The notes beneath the pieces were generated by a model that ran no database searches, had not been told where the DNA came from, and saw only the letters and a list, made by a program, of their open reading frames with translations. A program made the position numbers and the translations under genes. From contig JAGWWH010000004.1 in the NCBI GenBank assembly GCA_018970485.1, positions 7,595-71,594 of the forward strand: a stretch of DNA of 64,000 nt. Direction: 5' to 3'. Of the stretch, positions 6,869-52,446 are shown piece by piece (the stretch's first letter is position 1; each line of letters starts with the position of its first letter). The stretch is from Pseudomonadota bacterium (GTDB lineage Bacteria > Pseudomonadota > Alphaproteobacteria > Rickettsiales > UBA1997).

Positions 6869-7359
6869 GAAAAGGAAATATCAAACAGTTAGTGGGTTGG
6901 AAGGAGTGGTTTGAACTCCCTTGTTTAGGCCTTCCAGCCATTAAAGGAAAAATTGATACTGGAGCAAAAACCTCCTCGCTTCACGCCTTTAACATCGAAA
7001 GTTTTTATCTCGAAGATGTTGAGTATGTGAGGTTTGATATTCACCCTCTGCAAAAAAATAAAAGACTTGCTCAGCATTGCGTAGCAAGGGTTGTTGATCA
7101 TCGCATGGTTTCTGATTCTGGCGGAAAAAAGGAAAAAAGAATCGTGATTAAATCCGACTTAAGAATCGGAAAACATAAAGTCAGAATTGAATTAACCCTT
7201 GCCAATCGTGACTCCATGGCTTTTCGAATGCTGCTTGGACGTGAAGCGGTGAAACAAGGAAAAATGTTGGTTGATGTCTCAAAAGCCTTCGTTCAAGGCA
7301 CAAAAAAGAAGGGTGAAATCCTCAAACTCTACAACACAACAAAACCTTGCCATTTATGA
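6865..7359 (+). CDS. RimK-associated retropepsin-like peptidase ('ATP-dependent zinc protease' family, RimB-like)
   Basis: 164 aa. GWKEWFELPCLGLPAIKGKIDTGAKTSSLHA matches the family usually encoded next to rimK. Its start overlaps the kdsB stop and its end overlaps rimK. Confidence 0.75.
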   Translation: MRKGNIKQLVGWKEWFELPCLGLPAIKGKIDTGAKTSSLHAFNIESFYLEDVEYVRFDIHPLQKNKRLAQHCVARVVDHRMVSDSGGKKEKRIVIKSDLRIGKHKVRIELTLANRDSMAFRMLLGREAVKQGKMLVDVSKAFVQGTKKKGEILKLYNTTKPCHL

Positions 7360-9929: not shown

Positions 9930-12308
9930 TTAACCGAAAAAACCACGGCGTTTTTTTGGAGCACCACCACCATCACGGTCATCGCGATCTCCGCCACTTC
10001 TGCGGTCACCACGATCATCGCGATCACGTCCGCCACCTCTACGGTCGCCGCCGCGGTCATCGCGATCACGACCACCTCTACGATCACCGCCACGGTCATC
10101 GCGATCGCGTCCACCACCTCTACGATCACCACCGCGGTCATCACGACCGCCAGATTCTCTTTCGTCGATCATTTGCGGCTTATTTGGAAGGCGCTCAGTA
10201 ATATCTTCGCCAGTTGTTTGATCAACACAGCGGAAGCTCAATTTTGGACGACCCTTTTTGTCAAAACCAATTACTTTAACTTTTATTACATCGCCCTCGT
10301 TAATGATATCTTCAACGAAATCGACACGATATTCAGCCAGTTCAGAGATATGAACGAATCCGTCGCGATTATTAGAAATGCTAACGAAAGCGCCGGCATC
10401 AATTACTTTTACGACTGGACCTTCGTAGATATCTCCTATCTCTGGTTCGAAAGTAATTTCGTTAATCATCGCGACCGCTTTTTTAACAGCTTCGCTGTTG
10501 CTCGAGGAAATTTTTACCACTCCATTGTCATCAACATCGACCGCGGCTCCAGAAACTGCGCAAATTTCTTTTATTACCGCACCTCGCGCACCAATAACTT
10601 CACGAATTTTCTTTTGAGGAATATTCATTATTTCAACGCGCGGAACATTTCCATTTAGTTCAGCCCTGGACGAGGACATAACTGCACACATTTTATCAAG
10701 AATGTGAAGTCTTCCAACATTAGCTTGCTCAAGAGCTTTTTGCATAATCTCAACGGTAATGCCGTTGATTTTGATATCCATTTGAAGCGATGTAATGCCT
10801 TCTGCAGTTCCAGCTACCTTGAAGTCCATATCACCAAGATGATCTTCATCACCCATGATGTCTGAAAGAATAACATAATCGTTACCTTCTTTGATCAATC
10901 CCATCGCGATTCCAGAGACTGGAGCCTTGATCGGAACGCCGGCATCCATCAAAGCAAGTGAAGCTCCACAAACCGAAGCCATTGATGACGAACCATTTGA
11001 TTCAGTGATTTCAGAGACAACCCGTGCTGCGTAACTAAATTGTTCAGGGGTTGGGAATACTGGGTTCAGAGCTCTCCAAGCCAATTTTCCGTGGCCGATT
11101 TCACGACGTCCTGGAGATTTCAATTGTCCAGTTTCACCTACTGAATAAGGAGGAAAGTTGTAGTGAAGCATGAAAGATTCTTCAGACATGCCTGGATCAA
11201 GATTCTCGATCAATTGTTTATCTTTTCCAGTCGCACCAAGGGTTGCTGTAACAAGAGCTTGTGTTTCACCGCGAGTAAAAAGAGCTGATCCGTGAACTTG
11301 TGGAAGTATTCCGGTTTCGATTTCTATACGACGAACATCAGTTGTTGAGCGACCGTCAATTCTTTTGCCGGTTTTTAACACATCATTGCGCACGATTTCT
11401 TGCGCGAGAGTTTTGAAAATTGATTTAACTTTATTCGCATCAACAGATTCGCTAACGAATTTATTTTTTACGTCACTGAAAATTTCATCTAAATCAGAAG
11501 AGCGAGCTTGTTTCTCTTGTTTCTTGTAAGCAGCGATTAGGCGATCACCTATAAAGATAGAGATTTCATTTTTAACTGAAGAATGATCAGCTTTTGCCAC
11601 TTCAATTTTCTTCTTACCAGCATCCTCTTTTAGGGACTTGATCATCGTGATCACTGGCTGGAAAGATTGGTGAGCGAATGTGATCGCTTCCAACATCTTG
11701 GATTCAGAAAGCTCTTTTGCTTCTGACTCAATCATCAAAACAGATGATTCTGTACCAGCAACAACTAGATCTAAGCTACTAGTCTTAAGCTCTTCAATAC
11801 TTGGATTAATAACGAACTCACCATTTATAATCGCGACCCTAGCTCCAGCAATAGGCTCAAGGAATGGGGCTTCGGAAATCTCTAAAGCAGCAGATGCACC
11901 AATCAATGCAGCAATGTCTGGGGTGCAAGTTGGGTCGTAAGAAAGAACGGTGCAAACAACGTTCACTTCATTGTAAAAATTAGAAGGAAAGAGTGGACGA
12001 ATCGGACGATCAATCAAACGAGAAGTTAGGGTTGCCGCATCGGATGGTTTAGTTTCGCGCTTAAAGAAGCCTCCTGGAATTTTCCCAGCAGCGTAAGATT
12101 TTTCGAGATAGTTTACAGTAAGAGGAAAAAAATCAGCTCCATCCATCGCTTTACTAGCAACAGTTACGGCGCAAAGAACTGTGGTATTGCCATATTTTAC
12201 AACAACAGAGCCGCTAGCTTGACGAGCAATCTTTCCCGTCTCTAAAGAGAGGGGTTTTCCGTTCCAATCAATTTGTTTTTTGATCACATTAAACATAGTT
12301 TCGGACAT
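9930..12308 (-). CDS. pnp: Polyribonucleotide nucleotidyltransferase (PNPase) with an atypical C-terminal R/G/D-rich repeat tail
   Basis: 792 aa. Two RNase PH domains, KH and S1 domains (…GFVHISELA…VIGFDKKGRPKLSFR), then about 90 extra residues ending in the GGRDDRGGDRRGGG... repeats. Confidence 0.97.
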   Translation of the reverse strand: MSETMFNVIKKQIDWNGKPLSLETGKIARQASGSVVVKYGNTTVLCAVTVASKAMDGADFFPLTVNYLEKSYAAGKIPGGFFKRETKPSDAATLTSRLIDRPIRPLFPSNFYNEVNVVCTVLSYDPTCTPDIAALIGASAALEISEAPFLEPIAGARVAIINGEFVINPSIEELKTSSLDLVVAGTESSVLMIESEAKELSESKMLEAITFAHQSFQPVITMIKSLKEDAGKKKIEVAKADHSSVKNEISIFIGDRLIAAYKKQEKQARSSDLDEIFSDVKNKFVSESVDANKVKSIFKTLAQEIVRNDVLKTGKRIDGRSTTDVRRIEIETGILPQVHGSALFTRGETQALVTATLGATGKDKQLIENLDPGMSEESFMLHYNFPPYSVGETGQLKSPGRREIGHGKLAWRALNPVFPTPEQFSYAARVVSEITESNGSSSMASVCGASLALMDAGVPIKAPVSGIAMGLIKEGNDYVILSDIMGDEDHLGDMDFKVAGTAEGITSLQMDIKINGITVEIMQKALEQANVGRLHILDKMCAVMSSSRAELNGNVPRVEIMNIPQKKIREVIGARGAVIKEICAVSGAAVDVDDNGVVKISSSNSEAVKKAVAMINEITFEPEIGDIYEGPVVKVIDAGAFVSISNNRDGFVHISELAEYRVDFVEDIINEGDVIKVKVIGFDKKGRPKLSFRCVDQTTGEDITERLPNKPQMIDERESGGRDDRGGDRRGGGRDRDDRGGDRRGGRDRDDRGGDRRGGGRDRDDRGDRRSGGDRDDRDGGGAPKKRRGFFG
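9963..10151. repeat. Coding tandem repeat of about 4.5 units of 39-42 bp, encoding (R)DRDDRGGDRRGG(G) within the pnp 3' end
   Basis: Protein-level repeats are GRDDRGGDRRGGG / RDRDDRGGDRRGG / RDRDDRGGDRRGGG / RDRDDRGDRRSGG / DRDDRDGGG. The periodicity is also visible in the DNA (…cgcgatcacg[t/a]cc[g/a]ccacctctacg[g/a]tc…). Confidence 0.85.
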
Positions 12309-12441: not shown

Positions 12442-12711
12442 TTATTTACGGATCTCGAGCTTTTTGATAAGAACTTCGTAACGCTTGGAATTAGAAGACT
12501 TTAGGTAATCAAGTAAACTTCTTCTCTTTCCAACAAGAATGAGTAGGCCGCGACGCGAGGAGAAATCTTTTTTATGAGATTCCAGATGTTTGGATAGATT
12601 TTCGATCTGTTGAGTGATGATCGCGCACTGTACTTCAACCGAACCGCTATCATTTTTAGATTGAGCGAAGTCGGCGATAACTTCTTTTTTTGATTTATTC
12701 AAAAGAGACAT
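12442..12711 (-). CDS. rpsO: 30S ribosomal protein S15
   Basis: 89 aa. Contains GSVEVQCAIITQQIENLSKHLESHKKDFSSRRGLLILVGKRRSLLDYL. Confidence 0.97.
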   Translation of the reverse strand: MSLLNKSKKEVIADFAQSKNDSGSVEVQCAIITQQIENLSKHLESHKKDFSSRRGLLILVGKRRSLLDYLKSSNSKRYEVLIKKLEIRK

Positions 12712-16449: not shown

Positions 16450-18372
16450 CTATTCTTCTTGCTTCACCTGTTTACCAAAAACTTTATCGTTGGTTTTGAC
16501 TGGATAGCGCGAGAGTAAGTAGGCGTTGTATTCACTCATCACTTCATTTCTAAATTCATCAGCAGCTTTTGCTTTGACTTGCTCTAATTGAATTTGGTTT
16601 AGAGGTGATTTTTTTATTTCACGCAAAACACCAATCACAAACTGATCCTCAGACTGGCTGGCGACAGAAGTTGCCTCTCCCACTTTAGTCGCAAATAAGT
16701 ATTTCGAGAATTGATCTTGGTAAGGGATTTGGCGTCCTTGAAAATTTAGGTAAAAAATGCGCGGAAACTCTCGAGATTTGTCAAATTTTGCGCGATATTT
16801 TGCGGCAACTTGTGCGATTGAATTAGGATTTTCTTTTAACTCCTCTTCAATTTTTTTAGCTAGATCTAGCAACGCTTCTCGTCTTTTAGCCCCAAGCAAA
16901 TCTTCGATTACTTTGGATTTTGCTTCCACTAACTCGAGCTGTTTTGATGGCAAAATCTCTTCAACGAATAAGGCATAAAATCCTCCAGAAATTTCAGACT
17001 GAAAAATCTTTGAAACCTGCTTCTCTTTTAAAGCAAAAGCGTTGGCGGCGAAATTGGCTAAACTCTTAATTTCGGAAATCTCAGAACCTTTTTCTTCAAC
17101 CAAAACGGGTGCAGATAGTTTTAGATTAAACTTCTTGGCTGCATCAGAAAGTGAGTTGCTAGTCAAAAGAAAATCATCAATTGCAGAAATCTTTTCTTGC
17201 AAAACTTTCTCTTCTCTACCCTGCGCTAGCTTGACTTTGATTGCATTTTTAACTTCCGCAAAAGGCATGAGCTGCGGCTGCTTAATTTCGTTTAGTAAGA
17301 AAACGTGAAAACCGAGCGGACTCTGAATCACTTGGCTTTTCTCATTTAAACCAAGCTTGAAAACCTGATCAGCAATTTGCGCAATCAAGTCTCTTTGCGA
17401 GATATTTAGCATGCTTATCTCTTTTGCGCCTTTTTTTAATAAGCTTTTGGCCAGCTTTTCAAATTCGGGTTTTAACTTTGATTTATCAGCTCCAGAAGAC
17501 GCTTCGAGTTTTTGTAAAAAGTTTTTTGCATCTTCCTCTTTGTCGAAAACAACGTGGTAAAAACTACGCGTCTCAGGCTTGGTGAATTGCTCTTTATCCT
17601 TCTCATATTCAGCAAGAATTTCTTGATCAGAAATTACTAAATCTTTGGCGAAATCTTTTTTTGTAAAACTCAAATAAGAGACCTTACGACGCTCTGGCAG
17701 AATGTATTGCGACTGATTTTCAGCAAAGAATTTCTGTAATTCTTCTTCAGTTGGTTTCGCGATATTTGTGATATTTTTTGCTGAAATTGTAATTACATCC
17801 GCAACACGCTTTTCCTGATTAAAACCTTCAACTCTAGCGACAACTTGATCAGAGATTGGAGCGGCGAGAGAGAAAGACTGAAGTATCATTCTAGCAGAAA
17901 TTCCGCTAGCAATTTCGCTAACATATCTCTCTTCGTTTAAGCCATTTTTCTTCAAGAATTCTTCAAATTTTTTGCGATCAAATTTTCCGCTTTCATTCTT
18001 GAAACTCGGGTCTTTGGCGATTGATTCTAAAATGATTTTTTTACTCGCAGAAATATCGAAATCATCCGACAATTTCTTCACCATCACTTGATTAACTAAA
18101 CGACCCAAAACATCTGATTTGAAACGATCCGATTCGAGATATTTTAGCGCTTCTTCACTATTTCCTGATGAGGCCAAAATAACTTCACGATCTGCGCGCA
18201 GCGCTGAATTGAGTTGATTAGAACTAATTTCATCTCCACCAATTTTTGCTACCCAATTATTTGGACTACCGAGAATAAAACTACTAACGCCAAACAGCAC
18301 AAAGCTTAGAGCGACAAAGGATAGAATGATTTTAAAGAAAATGGTGTTGGCCAGTTTACGGAAGAATTGCAT
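16450..18372 (-). CDS. ppiD: Periplasmic chaperone PpiD-like (SurA N-terminal plus parvulin-like domain), membrane-anchored
   Basis: 640 aa. An N-terminal TM helix followed by VAKIGGDEISSNQL, and an internal rotamase-like segment (SPLGFHVFLLNEI). Confidence 0.8.
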   Translation of the reverse strand: MQFFRKLANTIFFKIILSFVALSFVLFGVSSFILGSPNNWVAKIGGDEISSNQLNSALRADREVILASSGNSEEALKYLESDRFKSDVLGRLVNQVMVKKLSDDFDISASKKIILESIAKDPSFKNESGKFDRKKFEEFLKKNGLNEERYVSEIASGISARMILQSFSLAAPISDQVVARVEGFNQEKRVADVITISAKNITNIAKPTEEELQKFFAENQSQYILPERRKVSYLSFTKKDFAKDLVISDQEILAEYEKDKEQFTKPETRSFYHVVFDKEEDAKNFLQKLEASSGADKSKLKPEFEKLAKSLLKKGAKEISMLNISQRDLIAQIADQVFKLGLNEKSQVIQSPLGFHVFLLNEIKQPQLMPFAEVKNAIKVKLAQGREEKVLQEKISAIDDFLLTSNSLSDAAKKFNLKLSAPVLVEEKGSEISEIKSLANFAANAFALKEKQVSKIFQSEISGGFYALFVEEILPSKQLELVEAKSKVIEDLLGAKRREALLDLAKKIEEELKENPNSIAQVAAKYRAKFDKSREFPRIFYLNFQGRQIPYQDQFSKYLFATKVGEATSVASQSEDQFVIGVLREIKKSPLNQIQLEQVKAKAADEFRNEVMSEYNAYLLSRYPVKTNDKVFGKQVKQEE

Positions 18373-20465: not shown

Positions 20466-20472
20466 TCATTAA

Positions 20473-20533
20473 CCCTTCGACAAGCTCAGGGTGACCACCG
20501 AGGAGTGTCATGCTGAGCTTGTCGAAGCATGAC
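20473..20533. repeat. Nested-palindrome repeat element, copy A (intergenic, between gatC and hdaA)
   Basis: Sequence: CCCTTCGACAAGCTCAGGGTGAC-CACCGAGGAGT-GTCATGCTGAGCTTGTCGAAGCATGAC. The 15-bp cores CTTCGACAAGCTCAG and CTGAGCTTGTCGAAG are perfect reverse complements. It is near-identical to 42719-42773. Confidence 0.9.
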
Positions 20534-42718: not shown

Positions 42719-42773
42719 GGTCACCCTTCGACAAGCTCAGGGTGACTAGTCATGCTGAGCTTGTCGAAGCATG
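42719..42773. repeat. Nested-palindrome repeat element, copy B (intergenic, between dnaN and recF)
   Basis: Sequence: GGTCACCCTTCGACAAGCTCAGGGTGAC-TA-GTCATGCTGAGCTTGTCGAAGCATGG. The arms are mutual inverted repeats, and each arm also has its own 7-bp terminal inverted repeat (GTCACCC/GGGTGAC and GTCATGC/GCATG). Confidence 0.9.
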
Positions 42774-46705: not shown

Positions 46706-48534
46706 TCTTTTTCTCCTTCAATCGAACCTTCTTTTTTAGTATTTTCGGCATCTTGTTTGTTCGATTTATTCTTAGAGTAATCAGGCATGTAAGGCTCTTG
46801 TTTCGGAATTTTAGTTTTTGGCAAGAGGCGCGAAGTGAACATTTTGTCTTTGAAATAAAATATTTTTTTCGCGCGAATTGGTGGCTGAGATTCAATCAAA
46901 ATAATTTCTTCTTCGCGCGGTAATTGGATAACCTCTTGTGGTAACAACAAAGCGCGCTGCACATCAGAAAGATGTAGAGAACGCGCACCAGGATTGAGAT
47001 CGAGATATTTTGGCTTGTTGTAAGAAATTTGTGTCGCGGTTTTATTGCCAAGAAGTTGTGAGATCAGATTTGCCGTCTCCATGTTGTTGGCAGCGAAAGT
47101 TACGCGATAAGTTGAGTTGGAAAGGAATGAGTTCATTCCACTTTCTTCGTAAATTCCTTTGAGCTGCTCGGTATCTTGAATGATTAGAAACAAACGAACG
47201 CGATATCCGCGGAAGTAAGCAATACCTGCCTGAAACTGCTCCATTTTGCCTAGAGTTGGAAACTCATCCATCAGCATCAATACGCCAAATTTCTCATTGG
47301 GACGCGGCATATGTGCGGTGAAAAATGCTGCAGCTTGTTGATAAAACATATTCATCAAGGGCTTGAGGCGCGTGATGTTATCTGGTGTTAAACCAACGTA
47401 ACAAGTGTGCGGAGAGAGTTTGAATTCATGCAAATTAAAATCAGAAGTGGCAGTTGTGGTATCAATCAAAGGGTTGGCCCATAATTCGAGAGATGAGTTG
47501 GCTGTAGATGTCACCGAGCCCCGCTCTTTATCAGGCTTCTGCAAATATGAAGCGATATTCATGTAAGAAACTGGGTGAATTTTTTTGCCCATCGTGTCGA
47601 GAACCACAGCAAGATTATAAACCACGTCATCATTTCTAAGGGTTCGCACAACCTCGCCGAGAGTTGCCGGCTTATCTTCCGCGGCAACGAGATAAAGCAT
47701 AACTCCTGTCAATAAAGCGCGCGCTTCGTTCTGCCAAAATTCCTGTTCGGGCAAAAGAAAATTACAGAGCTTCTGCACGTCATCGACCATTTTTCCCGGC
47801 TTGTTACTGATCCAATCCATCGGATTGTAGCAATGTGAAATTCCGTCAGGATCTGCCGGATTCCACAAAAATACTTTTTGTTTCAGATGCTTGCGACGCC
47901 AGCCAGAAGTGAGTTCGTAGTTTTCTAACTTGATATCGTGAACGATAACTGACTCAGCCCAAAACAACAAATTCGGAATTACAAAACCCACACCTTTACC
48001 AGAACCCGTAGGTGCAAAAAGCAAAATATGTTGAAAGCCTTCAGCAATCAGAAGTTTATGTTTGTAGGTGCCAAGCAAAACTCCGGTTTTTGAGCGCAAA
48101 CCCATTTTCTTAACTTCCTTTGAAGTTGCCCAATGAGAATCGCCGTGGATTGATTCTTTTTTCTTGAAAGGACGCCAATCCATTATTGGTGCGCGGAATT
48201 TCCAGCCGCCTGCTAGCAAAATTAAGTAAGGTATAACTGTCGTTATCCAAAGTTTCCAAACGAAGCCGTTATAGCTTGAGATATTGAGCTTAGAGGAGTT
48301 GGCAAAATAGAATTTCCAGTAAGTGGCAAGAGTTTTGTAAATATAAATAAACTGCTTGGGCAGTGATAAATCTAGGTAGCTTTTGATGATGTCCCACTTC
48401 CCTGTAACAGCAAAAATGACGAGAGTTCCTGTGATGTAAAAGCAACTAGCAAGAACTAGGGCGAGCAAAAAACTAATGATTACAAAATTGCGTAAACTTT
48501 GTACCGCTGGATTTTCGTCTGCTATTGATGCCAT
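46702..48534 (-). CDS. virD4: Type IV secretion system coupling protein VirD4/TraG family
   Basis: 610 aa. N-terminal TM helices, HGDSHWAT, Walker A FAPTGSGKGVGFVIPNLL and Walker B LMLMDEFPTLG. The start and stop overlap recN and aroE. Confidence 0.9.
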   Translation of the reverse strand: MASIADENPAVQSLRNFVIISFLLALVLASCFYITGTLVIFAVTGKWDIIKSYLDLSLPKQFIYIYKTLATYWKFYFANSSKLNISSYNGFVWKLWITTVIPYLILLAGGWKFRAPIMDWRPFKKKESIHGDSHWATSKEVKKMGLRSKTGVLLGTYKHKLLIAEGFQHILLFAPTGSGKGVGFVIPNLLFWAESVIVHDIKLENYELTSGWRRKHLKQKVFLWNPADPDGISHCYNPMDWISNKPGKMVDDVQKLCNFLLPEQEFWQNEARALLTGVMLYLVAAEDKPATLGEVVRTLRNDDVVYNLAVVLDTMGKKIHPVSYMNIASYLQKPDKERGSVTSTANSSLELWANPLIDTTTATSDFNLHEFKLSPHTCYVGLTPDNITRLKPLMNMFYQQAAAFFTAHMPRPNEKFGVLMLMDEFPTLGKMEQFQAGIAYFRGYRVRLFLIIQDTEQLKGIYEESGMNSFLSNSTYRVTFAANNMETANLISQLLGNKTATQISYNKPKYLDLNPGARSLHLSDVQRALLLPQEVIQLPREEEIILIESQPPIRAKKIFYFKDKMFTSRLLPKTKIPKQEPYMPDYSKNKSNKQDAENTKKEGSIEGEKE

Positions 48535-50246
48535 TAATTTTCGATTAAACTTTTTGCTGCTAAAACCGCTTCCACGCTGATTTCTTCGCCTGATAACATT
48601 CTTGCAATTTCTTGCTCACGATCTTTTTTGTCGAGCTTTTTAATTTCAGTTTTCGCTTTGTTTTCAGAAAAAACTTTACTGATTTTAAAATGAGTTTTTG
48701 CTTTTGCGGCAATTTGTGGTTGATGAGTAACTACTAGAATTTGCAATTTTTCCGACAGGGTCTTGAGACGCTTTCCAACCGCATCAGCTGTACTTCCACC
48801 AATTCCAGTATCTATTTCATCAAAAATCATTGTTGGCACTGATTTCACATCAAGCAGCGCAACTTTAAGCGCGAGCATGAAGCGAGAAAGCTCGCCACCA
48901 GAAGCGATTTTAGAAATGTCGTCGAAGCCGTTTTTATTCAGAGAGGCGGTGAAGCGAACGCGGTCGTAGCCAGCGGGAGAACATGCTTCGACAGGCTCAG
49001 CATGACCAAGATCGTCACCCTGACCCTTCGACAAGCTCACGGTTCGAAGGCTGTCGCGAGCAATATCTATTAAAAATTTTGTTTCACCCATCTTCAAAAA
49101 TTTCAGCTCTGCCTCAACTTTTTCTGACAAAATTTTTGCCGATTTTTTGCGACGCTCCGAAAGTTCGTCGGCAATTTTCTTGTAATCTTTATTTAGCTCC
49201 AAGCGTTGTTTCTCAAGCTCTCCGACGAACTCCTCTTCATTTGAAAGTAGTTTTAATTTTTCTTGTGCATCCAAAATTATTTGCGGCAAGGAATCGATTG
49301 GAACATTGAATTTTCTAGCAAGAGCGCGAATGAAAAAAAGCCTCTCTTCAATTTCATCAAGATTATTTTCATCAGCAGAAATTTTTCTAACTAAGGCTTC
49401 GATGCTTGAAATTGCTGAATCGAGCTCATCATTTTGTCGATCAATTTTTTCGCTTAAGCCATCAAAATCTTCGCCAAGATTTTGATTTCTGATTAAAATT
49501 TTCTGCGCCAAAAGCAGTTGCGAGTTCGCTTCAAGCAAGTGTGATTTTAGGTCGCTAGAAAAATTTAGAATTTTTTCTTTGCTGATTAAAAAATCTTTTT
49601 TGGCGATTAATTCATTTTCTTCATCTGCTTTTAGCTCAGCATTTTCTAGCTCTTGCACCACATGTTCGAGATAATCTTTCTCTCTTGCTGCTGCTTCTTT
49701 TTTTGCAGAAATATCAGAAATTTTTTCCTCAACGACGCGTAAATTTTCGTAAATTTTTTTGAGATTTTTTAGCAAATTTTCGTTGCCAGCAAATTCATCT
49801 AGAATCGCCAAATGAGCGCTTGGATTAAGGAGTCCGCGCTGATCGTGTTGCCCGTGAATTTCCACCAAAGTTTCCCCAACTTTTGCTAAAAGATTCACAC
49901 CAATTGCGTTATCATTAACGAAAATTTTATTGACTGAATTTTCATTAATAGTTCTACGAATCCTTAACAGGCTTGGATTCTCGCTATCTAACAGATCATT
50001 TTCTGTAAGAAATTTTTTACATATTTCGTTTTGCGAAATATCAAATTCTGCTGCGACTTGTGCTTTATTTTCATCGCCACCAATCAAACGAAAATTAGCG
50101 CGAAAACCAATAGCAAGACCAAGAGCATCAAGCAAAATCGACTTACCCGAACCGGTCTCGCCACTTAGAATACAAAGACCCGGCGCAAGCTCGATTTCTG
50201 CTTTGTCGATTAGAACAATATTGTGAATTGAAAGAGAGGTAAGCAT
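48534..50246 (-). CDS. recN: DNA repair protein RecN, carrying a 23-codon repeat-derived insert
   Basis: Contains MLTSLSIHNIVLIDKAEIE, GETGSGKSILLDAL, a long coiled coil, the ABC signature ASGGELSRFMLALK and Walker B MIFDEIDTGIGG. Confidence 0.93.
   Translation of the reverse strand: MLTSLSIHNIVLIDKAEIELAPGLCILSGETGSGKSILLDALGLAIGFRANFRLIGGDENKAQVAAEFDISQNEICKKFLTENDLLDSENPSLLRIRRTINENSVNKIFVNDNAIGVNLLAKVGETLVEIHGQHDQRGLLNPSAHLAILDEFAGNENLLKNLKKIYENLRVVEEKISDISAKKEAAAREKDYLEHVVQELENAELKADEENELIAKKDFLISKEKILNFSSDLKSHLLEANSQLLLAQKILIRNQNLGEDFDGLSEKIDRQNDELDSAISSIEALVRKISADENNLDEIEERLFFIRALARKFNVPIDSLPQIILDAQEKLKLLSNEEEFVGELEKQRLELNKDYKKIADELSERRKKSAKILSEKVEAELKFLKMGETKFLIDIARDSLRTVSLSKGQGDDLGHAEPVEACSPAGYDRVRFTASLNKNGFDDISKIASGGELSRFMLALKVALLDVKSVPTMIFDEIDTGIGGSTADAVGKRLKTLSEKLQILVVTHQPQIAAKAKTHFKISKVFSENKAKTEIKKLDKKDREQEIARMLSGEEISVEAVLAAKSLIEN
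48982..49050. repeat. Nested-palindrome repeat element, copy C (rearranged, inverted orientation, in-frame inside recN)
   Basis: Sequence: CATGCTTCGACAGGCTCAGCATGAC-CAAGATC-GTCACCCTGA-CCCTTCGACAAGCTCACGG-TTCGAAGG. The first arm is the reverse complement of the right arm of copies A and B, with one mismatch. It is 69 bp, or 23 codons, translated as LRTVSLSKGQGDDLGHAEPVEA. Confidence 0.85.
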
Positions 50247-50960: not shown

Positions 50961-51710
50961 TTACTCCACCACGATACAATCCGCACTACTCTTTCTAGTC
51001 TGCGAGACATATCGGCCACAGAATGTTTCTGCCGAGATTTGATCTGGGAAATTACCAATTTGTAGTCGGTAAAAAATTCCCCTCTTGCCCAAATCAACCT
51101 TTTCAACAAAAGGCTTCAAACCGGAAAAAAGTGATGAGTTTCTATTTTCCAACTTGCGCCAACTCTCCAGTGCAGCTTCCTGCGAAGACATGGCTGCGAT
51201 CTGAACCTTGACCGATCTTTTGCCGCTAGATTTAGGCTGTGGTGGAGCTGCGCTATTATCTCTCTTTTCCACATCTCTTGTTAATATTTGCTTTGTCGGC
51301 TCTTTTTTATCTGTGGAATATACTAAAATTTTTTGCTCCTCTTTTACTAACTCCTTCTCGTCCTGAGACTTATTTTTGCTTGGTAGAGCTGGCTCTGAAT
51401 GAGCACGAATCTTTACGCTTTTTTGTTTCAAAGAGCCTTGCTTATTGCCAAAAATATCTTCGTAAATTCCACGATTGACCTGCATCTCGTCTTTAACTTC
51501 TTCCTCCTCAACAATCTTGATCGGACCTTCTGGCGACTTGATTGTCTCAATATCTGAATCTTTGTCTTGATGAACAAAATAATAAGCGCTGATGGTGATG
51601 TAGATAAAGGTAGCGAGAGAAAACATGGTCGCGCAAGCAAGCAGAACGCGCTTCGCCGTTCCAGGCATTTGGGGTTTGTCTTCTGTTTTTTTGTAGCCGA
51701 AATCTTCCAT
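50961..51710 (-). CDS. SPOR domain-containing membrane protein
   Basis: A single TM helix, a low-complexity linker and a C-terminal SPOR-like repeat (VKVQIAAMSSQEAALESWRKL...GIFYRLQIGNF). Confidence 0.75.
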   Translation of the reverse strand: MEDFGYKKTEDKPQMPGTAKRVLLACATMFSLATFIYITISAYYFVHQDKDSDIETIKSPEGPIKIVEEEEVKDEMQVNRGIYEDIFGNKQGSLKQKSVKIRAHSEPALPSKNKSQDEKELVKEEQKILVYSTDKKEPTKQILTRDVEKRDNSAAPPQPKSSGKRSVKVQIAAMSSQEAALESWRKLENRNSSLFSGLKPFVEKVDLGKRGIFYRLQIGNFPDQISAETFCGRYVSQTRKSSADCIVVE

Positions 51711-52159
51711 TATTTGAGATTTTTACTGCGTTGCTCAATGCCAAACAAAACTTTTTCGATCTGTAAAAACTGATCTAGAGCCATCTTAATTCCAGCTAAA
51801 ACACTCTCCTCATTTTGTGGATATTCATGGGTTAGTTCATTTCTTTTTTTACGAAATTCCATCCATTCATCTGCACTTGGAATGATCTCTAATTTCTCCA
51901 GCCGATCTAGCATATCTAGCACTGACATATTGCCGCAATTCTCTCCCAAGGCATTGAGTAGAAACTTAAATATCTTCGCGCCCATAACATCCTGCAACTT
52001 CACAAAACGAAGCATGAAGGCATCGACCATGTTCATGTTTTTTTGATCCAACAATTCTGCGTCGCTGAAATTTTTCAGCTGATCGTAATTAAATTTAGCT
52101 CGCTTCAGGTGAATTTTAGCAGCCTCTAAAGCCTCGATTAACAACGTCTTATCACTCAT
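51710..52159 (-). CDS. HEPN-domain protein, HepT-like toxin candidate (type VII TA)
   Basis: 149 aa, all-helical in appearance. It contains the HEPN Rx4H motif in the HepT form RNxxxHxY (KKRNELTHEYPQ). It overlaps the upstream nucleotidyltransferase gene by 4 nt. Confidence 0.7.
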   Translation of the reverse strand: MSDKTLLIEALEAAKIHLKRAKFNYDQLKNFSDAELLDQKNMNMVDAFMLRFVKLQDVMGAKIFKFLLNALGENCGNMSVLDMLDRLEKLEIIPSADEWMEFRKKRNELTHEYPQNEESVLAGIKMALDQFLQIEKVLFGIEQRSKNLK

Positions 52160-52446
52160 AAAAAAATCCCAGTTTGTTTTGCAGTTTCAAAGATTGGCTC
52201 AAATTTAGAGCTTGGAGATTGCACGATTAAATCAACTTTTCTCTCAATCCCCGCCTTCTCCAATTTAACCAAAAAATTTATTTTTTGCTGCAGAGAGACA
52301 TCTGTTTTTGTTTCGATAAAAAGATCAATATCTCCACCCTTTTTAACATCATCAACCCTACTGCCAAATAATCTTACCGGCACATCTCCGTAAATCTCCT
52401 TAGCAGTATTTTTGATGATGTTGATGTGATCTTGCGAGAGTCTCAT
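52156..52446 (-). CDS. Minimal nucleotidyltransferase (MNT/MntA-like antitoxin candidate)
   Basis: 96 aa. Pol-beta superfamily motif LFGSRVDDVKKGGDIDLFIE (GS...DxD). The start overlaps the argS stop (ATGA). Confidence 0.8.
   Translation of the reverse strand: MRLSQDHINIIKNTAKEIYGDVPVRLFGSRVDDVKKGGDIDLFIETKTDVSLQQKINFLVKLEKAGIERKVDLIVQSPSSKFEPIFETAKQTGIFL

Follow-up and report, generated by a model that had tools for sequence, protein, structure and literature searches.

Short palindromic repeats that behave as selfish DNA are already known to be carried in-frame within bacterial genes (PMC3733652, PMC2229807, PMC10969869), and here we describe a probable further case in recN, a gene on the minus strand of a 64-kb stretch of DNA (hereafter the window) from the metagenome-assembled genome of an uncultured, AT-rich bacterium. 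Among described systems, the one that fits best is the CGTC-tagged superfamily of repetitive extragenic palindromic (REP) sequences (Di Nocera, De Gregorio and Rocco 2013, BMC Genomics 14:522, PMC3733652), whose members bear a CGTC or TGTC (also CCTC) tag. Each unit has an 8-9 bp stem beginning with A-T, a loop of 4-5 nt, and a 3-nt unpaired tail that is mostly CCA, with the tag itself unpaired, and the units occur mostly as head-to-head dimers (PMC3733652). These REPs are commonest in alphaproteobacteria, are also found in Bacteroidetes, Chlorobi, and Spirochaetes, and have no known associated transposase (PMC3733652). They are mostly intergenic, with a minority lying in-frame within genes, many of these in uvrABCD, recBCD, polA, and dnaE2, and two families of Rickettsia conorii correspond to named Rickettsia palindromic elements (RPEs), CGTC-1 being RPE-6 and CGTC-4 being RPE-4 (PMC3733652). 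Neither recN nor the peptides encoded by the repeats described below appear in the table of intragenic cases of that paper. According to two later reviews (PMC2229807, PMC10969869, after Ogata et al. 2000), classical RPEs are Rickettsia-specific repeats of 105-146 bp with a long stem-loop, which lie between genes and also in-frame in conserved genes, where the host protein is functional, as tested for guanylate kinase.

We read the recN segment of the window as a real, tolerated selfish repeat of the REP type that is carried in-frame, and we give this reading a probability of roughly 0.8. The features concerned, in window coordinates, are the following.

48534 to 50246, minus strand: recN, the intact host gene, a single open reading frame (ORF) of 570 aa.
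48990 to 49046, minus strand: the net insertion in recN, 57 nt or 19 codons (R401-V419, peptide RTVSLSKGQGDDLGHAEPV), absent from 551-aa orthologues; the RecN stretch at the insert reads VSLSKGQGDDLGHAEPVEA.
48982 to 49006, minus strand: unit 2 of the recN repeat, coding strand GTCATGCTGAGCCTGTCGAAGCATG, translated as GHAEPVEAC, with 24 of 25 bases identical to the intergenic units.
49007 to 49013, minus strand: the 7-nt spacer between the two head-to-head recN units (as opposed to 11 nt in copy A and 2 nt in copy B).
49014 to 49050, minus strand: the rearranged unit 1 of the recN repeat, in direct-repeat family D4.
20472 to 20533: intergenic copy A, a head-to-head hairpin pair that fills the 73-nt spacer between gatC and an hda-like gene.
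42720 to 42773: intergenic copy B, a head-to-head hairpin pair that fills the 76-nt dnaN-recF spacer.

The recN tract descends from the same repeat family as the two intergenic copies. Its 25-mer CATGCTTCGACAGGCTCAGCATGAC (48982-49006, plus strand) matches the opposite strand at 20507-20531 and 42749-42773 with one mismatch each, a match that occurred in none of 100 dinucleotide-preserving shuffles, and its 16-mer core CCCTTCGACAAGCTCA is found exactly at 49024-49039, 20473-20488, and 42724-42739 (mean expected 0.01). The sequence GTCACCCTGA occupies 49014-49023, and the G+C content of the tract is 57-60% versus about 35-40% for the gene. A preliminary description of this stretch had proposed that 48982-49050 is a rearranged third copy of the element in the two spacers, opening with the reverse complement of the right arm of copies A and B at a single mismatch and continuing with GTCACCCTGA and a second core; each of these statements is borne out by the matches above, and the similarity to the intergenic copies lies far beyond that of shuffled sequence.

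The 69 nt of this tract are the extent of the similarity and not the size of the insertion, as the outer CTT and GAA-GCA-TG are also present in insert-free genes. When compared to the insert-free orthologues, which are 551 aa long and 84-87% identical, the window protein has 19 additional residues: the orthologues read DGL/ETCS where the window reads DSL/RTVSLSKGQGDDLGHAEPV/EACS, and the corresponding DNA is GAC GGT CTT/GAA ACA TGT versus GAC AGC CTT/...57 nt.../GAA GCA TGT. These close relatives hold no homologous residues at this position. The in-frame insert of 23 codons originally described is thus correct with respect to the frame, whereas its length must be revised to a net 19 codons. 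The translation through the tract to a point just before the signature ASGGELSR is as first given (RecN reads ...FLIDIARDSLRTVSLSKGQGDDLGHAEPVEACSPAGYDRVRF...), with the signature lying 29 residues downstream of the insert-bearing stretch. Among the 120 closest homologues, the distance between the conserved KF and GYD is usually 12-19 residues, as opposed to 34 in the window protein. The frame itself is a constraint on such repeats: of the six frames across each canonical pair (A and B), only one is open, and in the recN copy three of six are open, the used frame among them. Unit 2 of a canonical pair would end in GCA TGA, a stop, in the recN frame, where the window reads GCA TGT; correspondingly, the terminal TGAC of the canonical unit is TGTT in recN unit 2. 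The length of the spacer determines the frame of unit 2 relative to unit 1.

RecN is an SMC-like ATPase of double-strand-break repair that is not generally essential. The window gene is intact, scoring 441 bits against the NCBIfam recN equivalog model TIGR00634 (cutoff 407.85), with residues 1-569 aligned to model positions 1-562/563, and it also has a Pfam SMC_N match. Its catalytic motifs GETGSGKS, ASGGELSR, and IFDEID are invariant or nearly so in ortholog alignments, and an alignment of 77 RecN orthologues has no variation at the Walker A, signature, and Walker B residues. On the opposite strand, a 108-aa ORF (48983-49309, plus strand) begins within the recN repeat (MLRQAQHDQDRHPDPSTSS...); it is almost certainly spurious, like other false ORFs made by these repeats.

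To place the insert in the protein, we used an AlphaFold model built on a 77-sequence alignment, which has a mean predicted local distance difference test (pLDDT) score of 82.8 and a predicted template modeling (pTM) score of 0.63; an earlier run on 29 sequences had reached a mean pLDDT of 70. The best Foldseek match among solved structures is the Deinococcus radiodurans RecN structure 4AD8 (target-normalized TM-score of 0.83), and the alignment with this protein has a gap opposite the insert. Residues 400-419 are the sole segment with pLDDT below 50 and lie between the strands formed by residues 390-397 and 428-435. The insert is therefore predicted to be a disordered extension of a β-hairpin loop, located 29 residues ahead of the signature in the C-terminal half of the head. 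The preliminary description had suggested a tolerated surface loop, and both the model, in which the insert is a loop, and the D. radiodurans gap support this suggestion. Two other origins were considered for the tract, chance similarity and an ancestral loop, and both were rejected on the shuffles, the insert-free orthologues, and the D. radiodurans gap. The reverse possibility, that the intergenic copies derive from recN, was rejected because the repeat family is present in many phyla.

In its internal arrangement, the recN copy has diverged from the canonical pair. Copy B consists of GTCACCCTTCGACAAGCTCAGGGTGAC, a short spacer, and GTCATGCTGAGCTTGTCGAAGCATG, while the recN copy reads, on the coding strand, CCTTCGA-[ACCGTGAGCTTGTCGAAGGGT]-CAGGGTGAC gatcttg GTCATGCTGAGCCTGTCGAAGCATG, where the bracketed 21 nt are a complete inverted unit that substitutes for the six central bases of unit 1. 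Viewed on the plus strand, the outer halves of unit 1 (GTCACCCTGA ... TTCGAAGG) enclose a complete unit of opposite orientation, CCCTTCGACAAGCTCACGG, at 49024-49042. The nested unit represents a net gain of 15 nt over a plain unit and is seen as a 15-nt gap in relative L001 when it is aligned with the window. Both intergenic copies fold into one long hairpin on the mRNA strand (-36.9 kcal/mol with z = -5.4 for copy A, and -33.9 kcal/mol with z = -6.3 for copy B), whereas the recN copy has a folding z of -1.4, with 23 of 200 shuffles folding equally well, and has lost the family's long hairpin as a consequence of the nested inverted unit. The earlier notion of a palindromic element within recN is accurate as to repeat origin, but the copy is no longer a palindrome. 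It also differs from the intergenic copies by private substitutions, with CACGG in place of CAGGG and GCCTGTC in place of GCTTGTC. A nested unit with a CCC...CACGG stem in the loop of another unit was observed at two places, namely window 49024-49042 (inverted) and about 2255-2278 of L005 (direct). As to the source of the nested unit, our guesses are that the template was switched at a quasi-palindrome or that one unit inserted into the loop of another.

The basic unit of the family is a hairpin of about 27 nt with the form GTCA-NN-CTGAGCTTGTCGAAG-NN-TGAC, usually found as two units head to head in a pair of 54-65 nt. A scan of one genome per species with GTCANNCTGAGCTTGTCGAAGNNTGAC returned at least 120 stretches, and 129 unique matches were analyzed. 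The taxa among the matches listed are Bacteroidota, Ignavibacteria, Eremiobacterota, Nitrospirota, Nitrospinota, Babeliales, Peribacteria, Spirochaetota, Verrucomicrobia, Chloroflexi, and Alphaproteobacteria. Both free stem positions are Watson-Crick paired in 112/129 of the matches listed (about 8 by chance) with at least 11 pair types, which amounts to strong covariation in the 8-bp stem. The base preceding GTC is T or C in 108/129 (84%) of the matches listed, giving a TGTC or CGTC tag, and many of the cross-phylum matches listed are accompanied, at a distance of 3-25 nt, by an inverted unit whose stem differs. Across the hairpins of the matches listed, the median open frame is 77 aa versus 368 aa at random positions, indicating that they are mostly intergenic and that genes are avoided.

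Genuinely intragenic cases among the matches listed are those in an SMC gene (L027) and in type IX secretion sorting domains of the Pfam family Por_Secre_tail (L106 and L113). In L027 (217-2466, minus strand), which belongs to an unrelated uncultured bacterium, the hairpin lies in-frame at residue 509 of the SMC chromosome-segregation protein. In L106 and L113, which are Ignavibacteria-type contigs, it lies inside the C-terminal type IX sorting domain, and L119 has a C-terminal sequence similar to theirs with no Pfam match. In this set the encoded peptide is VILRQAQDD or VTLSLSKSD. Viral contigs hold 11 stretches of this hairpin type; in L133 (7962-8015), L137 (3521-3574), and L139 (2062-2115), two units stand back to back without a spacer as perfect 54-nt palindromes. 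At L129 (4505-4612), L026, L034, L105, and L033, gene calls extend through upstream hairpin pairs and acquire false N-termini, such as ...RHPELVSEP... on ArgS.

At the Rfam gathering threshold, only a tRNA was matched, and at permissive E-values the matches were weak and far under the gathering scores (mostly microRNA precursors, with a few snoRNA or sRNA models), so the hairpin is not a described RNA family. A search of the full-text literature returned no paper with the DNA core or with the encoded peptides (LRQAQDD, LSLSKHD, and others). No transposase or RAYT-type gene was present among the 20 window ORFs scanned, all of which are housekeeping genes.

We next consider the RecN loop across relatives. 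Of the 120 homologues closest to this RecN, 24 have a larger loop, and its contents in individual loci are given below.

L001 (564 aa): a decayed plain pair of the window type (CTGAGCTTGTCGAAG).
L143 (P0025): two decayed units of the window type (CTGAGCTTGTCGAAG) in direct order.
L141 (P0024): a remnant of unit 2.
L005 (P0044): a pair with core CTGAACTTGTTTCAG.
L129 (P0115): a pair with core CTGAACTTGTTTCAG.
L006 (P0113): a pair with core CTGAGCGTAGCGAAG.
L142 (P0031): a 42-nt palindrome of a fourth type.

At least four repeat sequence types thus occupy the same RecN loop in different lineages, which is new here. The occupations by the other types are independent events, whose insertion points in the loop differ by a few residues. 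The repeat type in recN is also found in the spacers of the same genome for three of the four lineages checked (window, L005, and L129); for L006, no second copy was found in the 21.7 kb available. Conversely, L127 and L128 have copies in their spacers and an empty recN loop. L128 has three intact head-to-head pairs of the window type between genes (7172-7230, 12491-12551, and 16933-16993), so this type is common to lineages with RecN proteins of about 71-74% identity. Intact copies are thus present in the window and L128 but not in L001 and L003. Three of the recN inserts form hairpins (-51.6, -39.3, and -29.6 kcal/mol for L005, L006, and L129, with z = -7.5, -9.5, and -6.3, respectively), while the fold of the L001 copy has z = +0.35. 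In the 564-aa group, identity is 77.5% over the insert region versus 96.5% over the remainder of RecN. This fast change, together with the unrelated peptides of other lineages, favors a passenger linker over an acquired function. Length differences in ArgS among these relatives were also considered as repeat inserts and were rejected: in the argS gene of L128 (4403-6289), the two inserts, which are lineage-specific and about 13 and 20 residues long, are not repeat-like, and the extension in L129 is a start mis-called through an upstream repeat pair.

The history of the recN insert was examined with a tree of five concatenated proteins (2229 columns). L001 and L003 are sisters (31 shared derived sites versus 3 and 2; 91.8% identity), with the window as their outgroup at about 84.5% identity. 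A three-state pattern, in which the window is intact, L001 is decayed, and L003 is empty, is observed both at recN and at the dnaN-recF spacer, the latter being 4 nt long in L003 and containing a decayed unit in L001. Two scenarios fit this pattern: an old insertion that the L003 lineage lost cleanly and the window lineage renewed, or independent gains at the same two sites in both lineages. Given an insert-free L003 that is sister to the decayed L001, with the window as outgroup, the insertion is not simply datable, and the datable event of the preliminary description does not stand in the form put forward, as the pattern requires either an old gain with clean loss or two gains at one site. 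The empty alleles resemble a repeat end over 7-10 nt: TTGAAACATG in L003 is comparable to TCGAAGCATG, and AGATCCT in L127 to GAGATCCTGAA. Such end-like empty sites could be expected from deletion between the self-complementary TCGA or GGATCC motifs of the arms, or from target preference.

Taken together, a tolerated in-frame repeat would have arisen as follows. Repeat pairs sit in the tiny spacers of this genome, and one such pair would have become part of recN, entering at the loop that is predicted to join two β strands in the C-terminal half of the ATPase head. The insert would persist because its net length is a multiple of three, the used frame is free of stops, and the loop tolerates disordered residues. 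The 19 residues would then be a passenger linker with no functional module, in a RecN that retains its catalytic motifs. The window copy was later rearranged, with a second unit lying inverted inside the first. Judging from sequence comparison, the insert is probably neutral.

Several observations weigh against this account. The genome portion examined is the 64-kb window, with three repeat copies, and neutrality is an inference from sequence comparison for a metagenome-assembled genome. The window copy, which matches the intergenic units at 24/25 bases, is far better preserved than the decayed L001 copy; this is a poor fit to a single old neutral insertion and calls for recent re-insertion or gene conversion. 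All inserts in the 120 homologues fall within one loop of about 15 residues, for which tolerance alone may not suffice. Finally, the "empty" sites have 7-10 nt that are repeat-end-like and that may be deletion scars or preferred targets.

These points lead to a reading that shares the same origin and extends it, namely active targeting or re-seeding of the loop as a landing site. We regard this as a tentative possibility, with the odds clearly on the other side. Insertion or gene conversion could occur preferentially where repeat-end-like sequence exists, for example at an earlier scar, and clean excision would be possible. At least four types in one loop (CTGAGCTTGTCGAAG in the window, L001, and L143; CTGAACTTGTTTCAG in L005 and L129; CTGAGCGTAGCGAAG in L006; and the fourth in L142) would be accounted for in this way, as would the resemblance of the empty alleles of L003 and L127 to a repeat end. 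Presence is also patchy among near relatives (P0031 and P0032 versus P0037 and P0040; P0044 versus P0050 and P0071), and the L005 and window copies are pristine or nearly so at a site that looks old from the L141 remnant. However, the insertion points vary by a few residues between lineages, as would be the case for a permissive loop and not for one precise target, and ordinary homologous recombination needs more than scars of 7-10 nt. Among the 20 window ORFs scanned, neither a transposase nor other machinery was found, and TCGA and GGATCC recur as direct repeats in both arms, such that slippage deletion could leave the same "scars."

The strongest form of this idea, that the RecN head loop is a site at which a REP superfamily without a known transposase recurrently lands and is excised, guided by sequence, is a shade more doubtful. 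If true, scars or repeat-end-like host sequence would attract copies of whichever type is active, and clean loss would restore the short loop. Filled and empty recN pairs would then be the first junction data on the movement of CGTC-type REPs, and the published excess of REP insertions in DNA-repair genes would be non-random.

Co-option of the inserted peptide, in which a new RecN interaction or mode of regulation is kept by selection, appears improbable. The enlargement of the loop in 24/120 of the closest homologues would be in keeping with it, and Di Nocera et al. (PMC3733652) have speculated that REP insertions in repair genes may alter the activity of those genes. On the other hand, the insert changes at roughly six times the rate of the remaining protein (22.5% versus 3.5% differences), the inserted peptides are unrelated between lineages and use different frames, presence or absence varies among close relatives, and the insert is predicted to be disordered. 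A role at the RNA level, with an mRNA hairpin in recN that controls stability, processing, or translation, is more improbable still: the hairpins of the L005, L006, and L129 inserts are very stable, and intergenic REPs are thought to act on mRNA (PMC3733652), but the window (z = -1.4) and L001 (z = +0.35) copies fold no better than shuffled sequence, no Rfam family is matched, and the locus is otherwise identical in insert-free relatives. Least credible is that the nested arrangement or the entire tract is an assembly artefact, a palindrome mis-traversed in a de Bruijn graph, for although the genome is metagenome-assembled, and no second assembly of the species was found (the window RecN is a single-member cluster for which no encoding contig is on record, and the nested junction specific to the window had 0 matches in a metagenome scan), the flanks are colinear with orthologues, the frame is kept without a stop, private substitutions set the copy apart from the intergenic ones, the same site holds related inserts in 12 database clusters of the 564-aa group (ENA, JGI, NCBI, and Logan assemblies), and L005 has a similar nested unit.

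As a tolerated selfish repeat, the insert adds recN to the published list of repair genes with in-frame repeats of the REP or RPE type, and shows that a RecN predicted to fold normally can accommodate a disordered passenger of 19 residues. In a clade of uncultured alphaproteobacteria, one protein loop has been repeatedly colonized by different repeat types, and because filled, decayed, and empty alleles can all be compared, the locus is a natural experiment on insertion, decay, loss, and tolerance. Some lineages keep hairpins of -30 to -50 kcal/mol inside coding sequence. In practical terms, the loop probably offers a place in RecN for the insertion of foreign peptides. There is also a lesson for annotation in many phyla, where such hairpins yield spurious ORFs and false N-terminal extensions; the mis-annotation of ORFs through REPs has been warned of before (PMC3733652).

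Two further features of the window were observed outside recN, and an Rfam scan found no rRNA genes in the 64 kb. The polynucleotide phosphorylase gene (ORF 9930-12308, minus strand) has a tandem array at its 3' end (9968-10146), with about 4.5 copies of a 42/39-nt unit that encode an Arg/Gly/Asp-rich tail of repeated DRGGDRRGGGRDRD. At 51710-52446 on the minus strand, two small ORFs lie between argS and a SPOR-domain gene: a 96-aa ORF with a nucleotidyltransferase domain, and a 149-aa ORF without a Pfam match. Both are absent from the syntenic loci L001 and L003 and may be a toxin-antitoxin-like insertion.

[quoted passage not shown] Both are small, non-autonomous repeats that can fuse in-frame to host ORFs, but MITEs are 100-200 bp long, with terminal inverted repeats and a TA target duplication (PMC2229807). 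The window insert is flanked by TCGAA and the L005 insert by GGATCC; both are self-complementary parts of the arms and need not be duplications. A resemblance in form is also found in REPINs, which are GTAG-tagged REP doublets mobilized by RAYT transposases (PMC8049555) and which likewise have two inverted units with a short spacer that give one long hairpin. As in REPINs, there are many copies per genome, mostly intergenic; unlike REPINs, no unit has GTAG or CTAC at either end, and no RAYT-type gene is present among the 20 window ORFs scanned. REPIN populations are also lineage-specific, whereas the loop sequence here is common to many phyla.

With RPEs, the repeat shares an occurrence both in spacers and within genes, and the recN copy shares an in-frame position in a conserved gene, a protein that is predicted to be folded, and an insert that is predicted to lie on the surface. 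It differs in size, with a unit of about 27 nt, a pair of 54-65 nt, and a net insert of 57 nt, and in that the recN copy has no significant fold. The hairpin type also spans many phyla, and the host is an uncultured, AT-rich bacterium labelled as a member of the Proteobacteria, with relatives labelled Alphaproteobacteria.

The agreement with the CGTC REPs lies in arrangement and genomic distribution. In copies A and B and at the center of the recN copy, the GTCA heads point toward one another with 11, 2, and 7 nt between them, respectively, and the repeats are mostly intergenic, with a minority in-frame inside genes. The L005 units (CGTC-ATCCTGAA-CTTGT-TTCAGGAT-CCA) fit the published format exactly, and the window type shares the CTTGT center with them. 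The window type is less canonical: its GTC pairs with the terminal GAC, there is no CCA tail, and the tails after the units are heterogeneous. The TGTC tag is present in the window only at unit 2 of copy A, with AGTC in copy B and GGTC in the recN copy. The stem of the window type (ATGCTGAG/CTTGT/CGAAGCAT) reaches 8 bp only with a tandem G-A/A-G mismatch and otherwise has an 11-nt loop, and unit 1 begins with AC and not AT. We place the window repeat as a REP in the style of the CGTC superfamily, and as no more than a candidate for its families CGTC-1 to CGTC-4. The RPE-like character that had been proposed for it from the outset is apt, as the CGTC/TGTC superfamily includes RPE-4 and RPE-6 and is known to occur in-frame in DNA-repair genes (PMC3733652).

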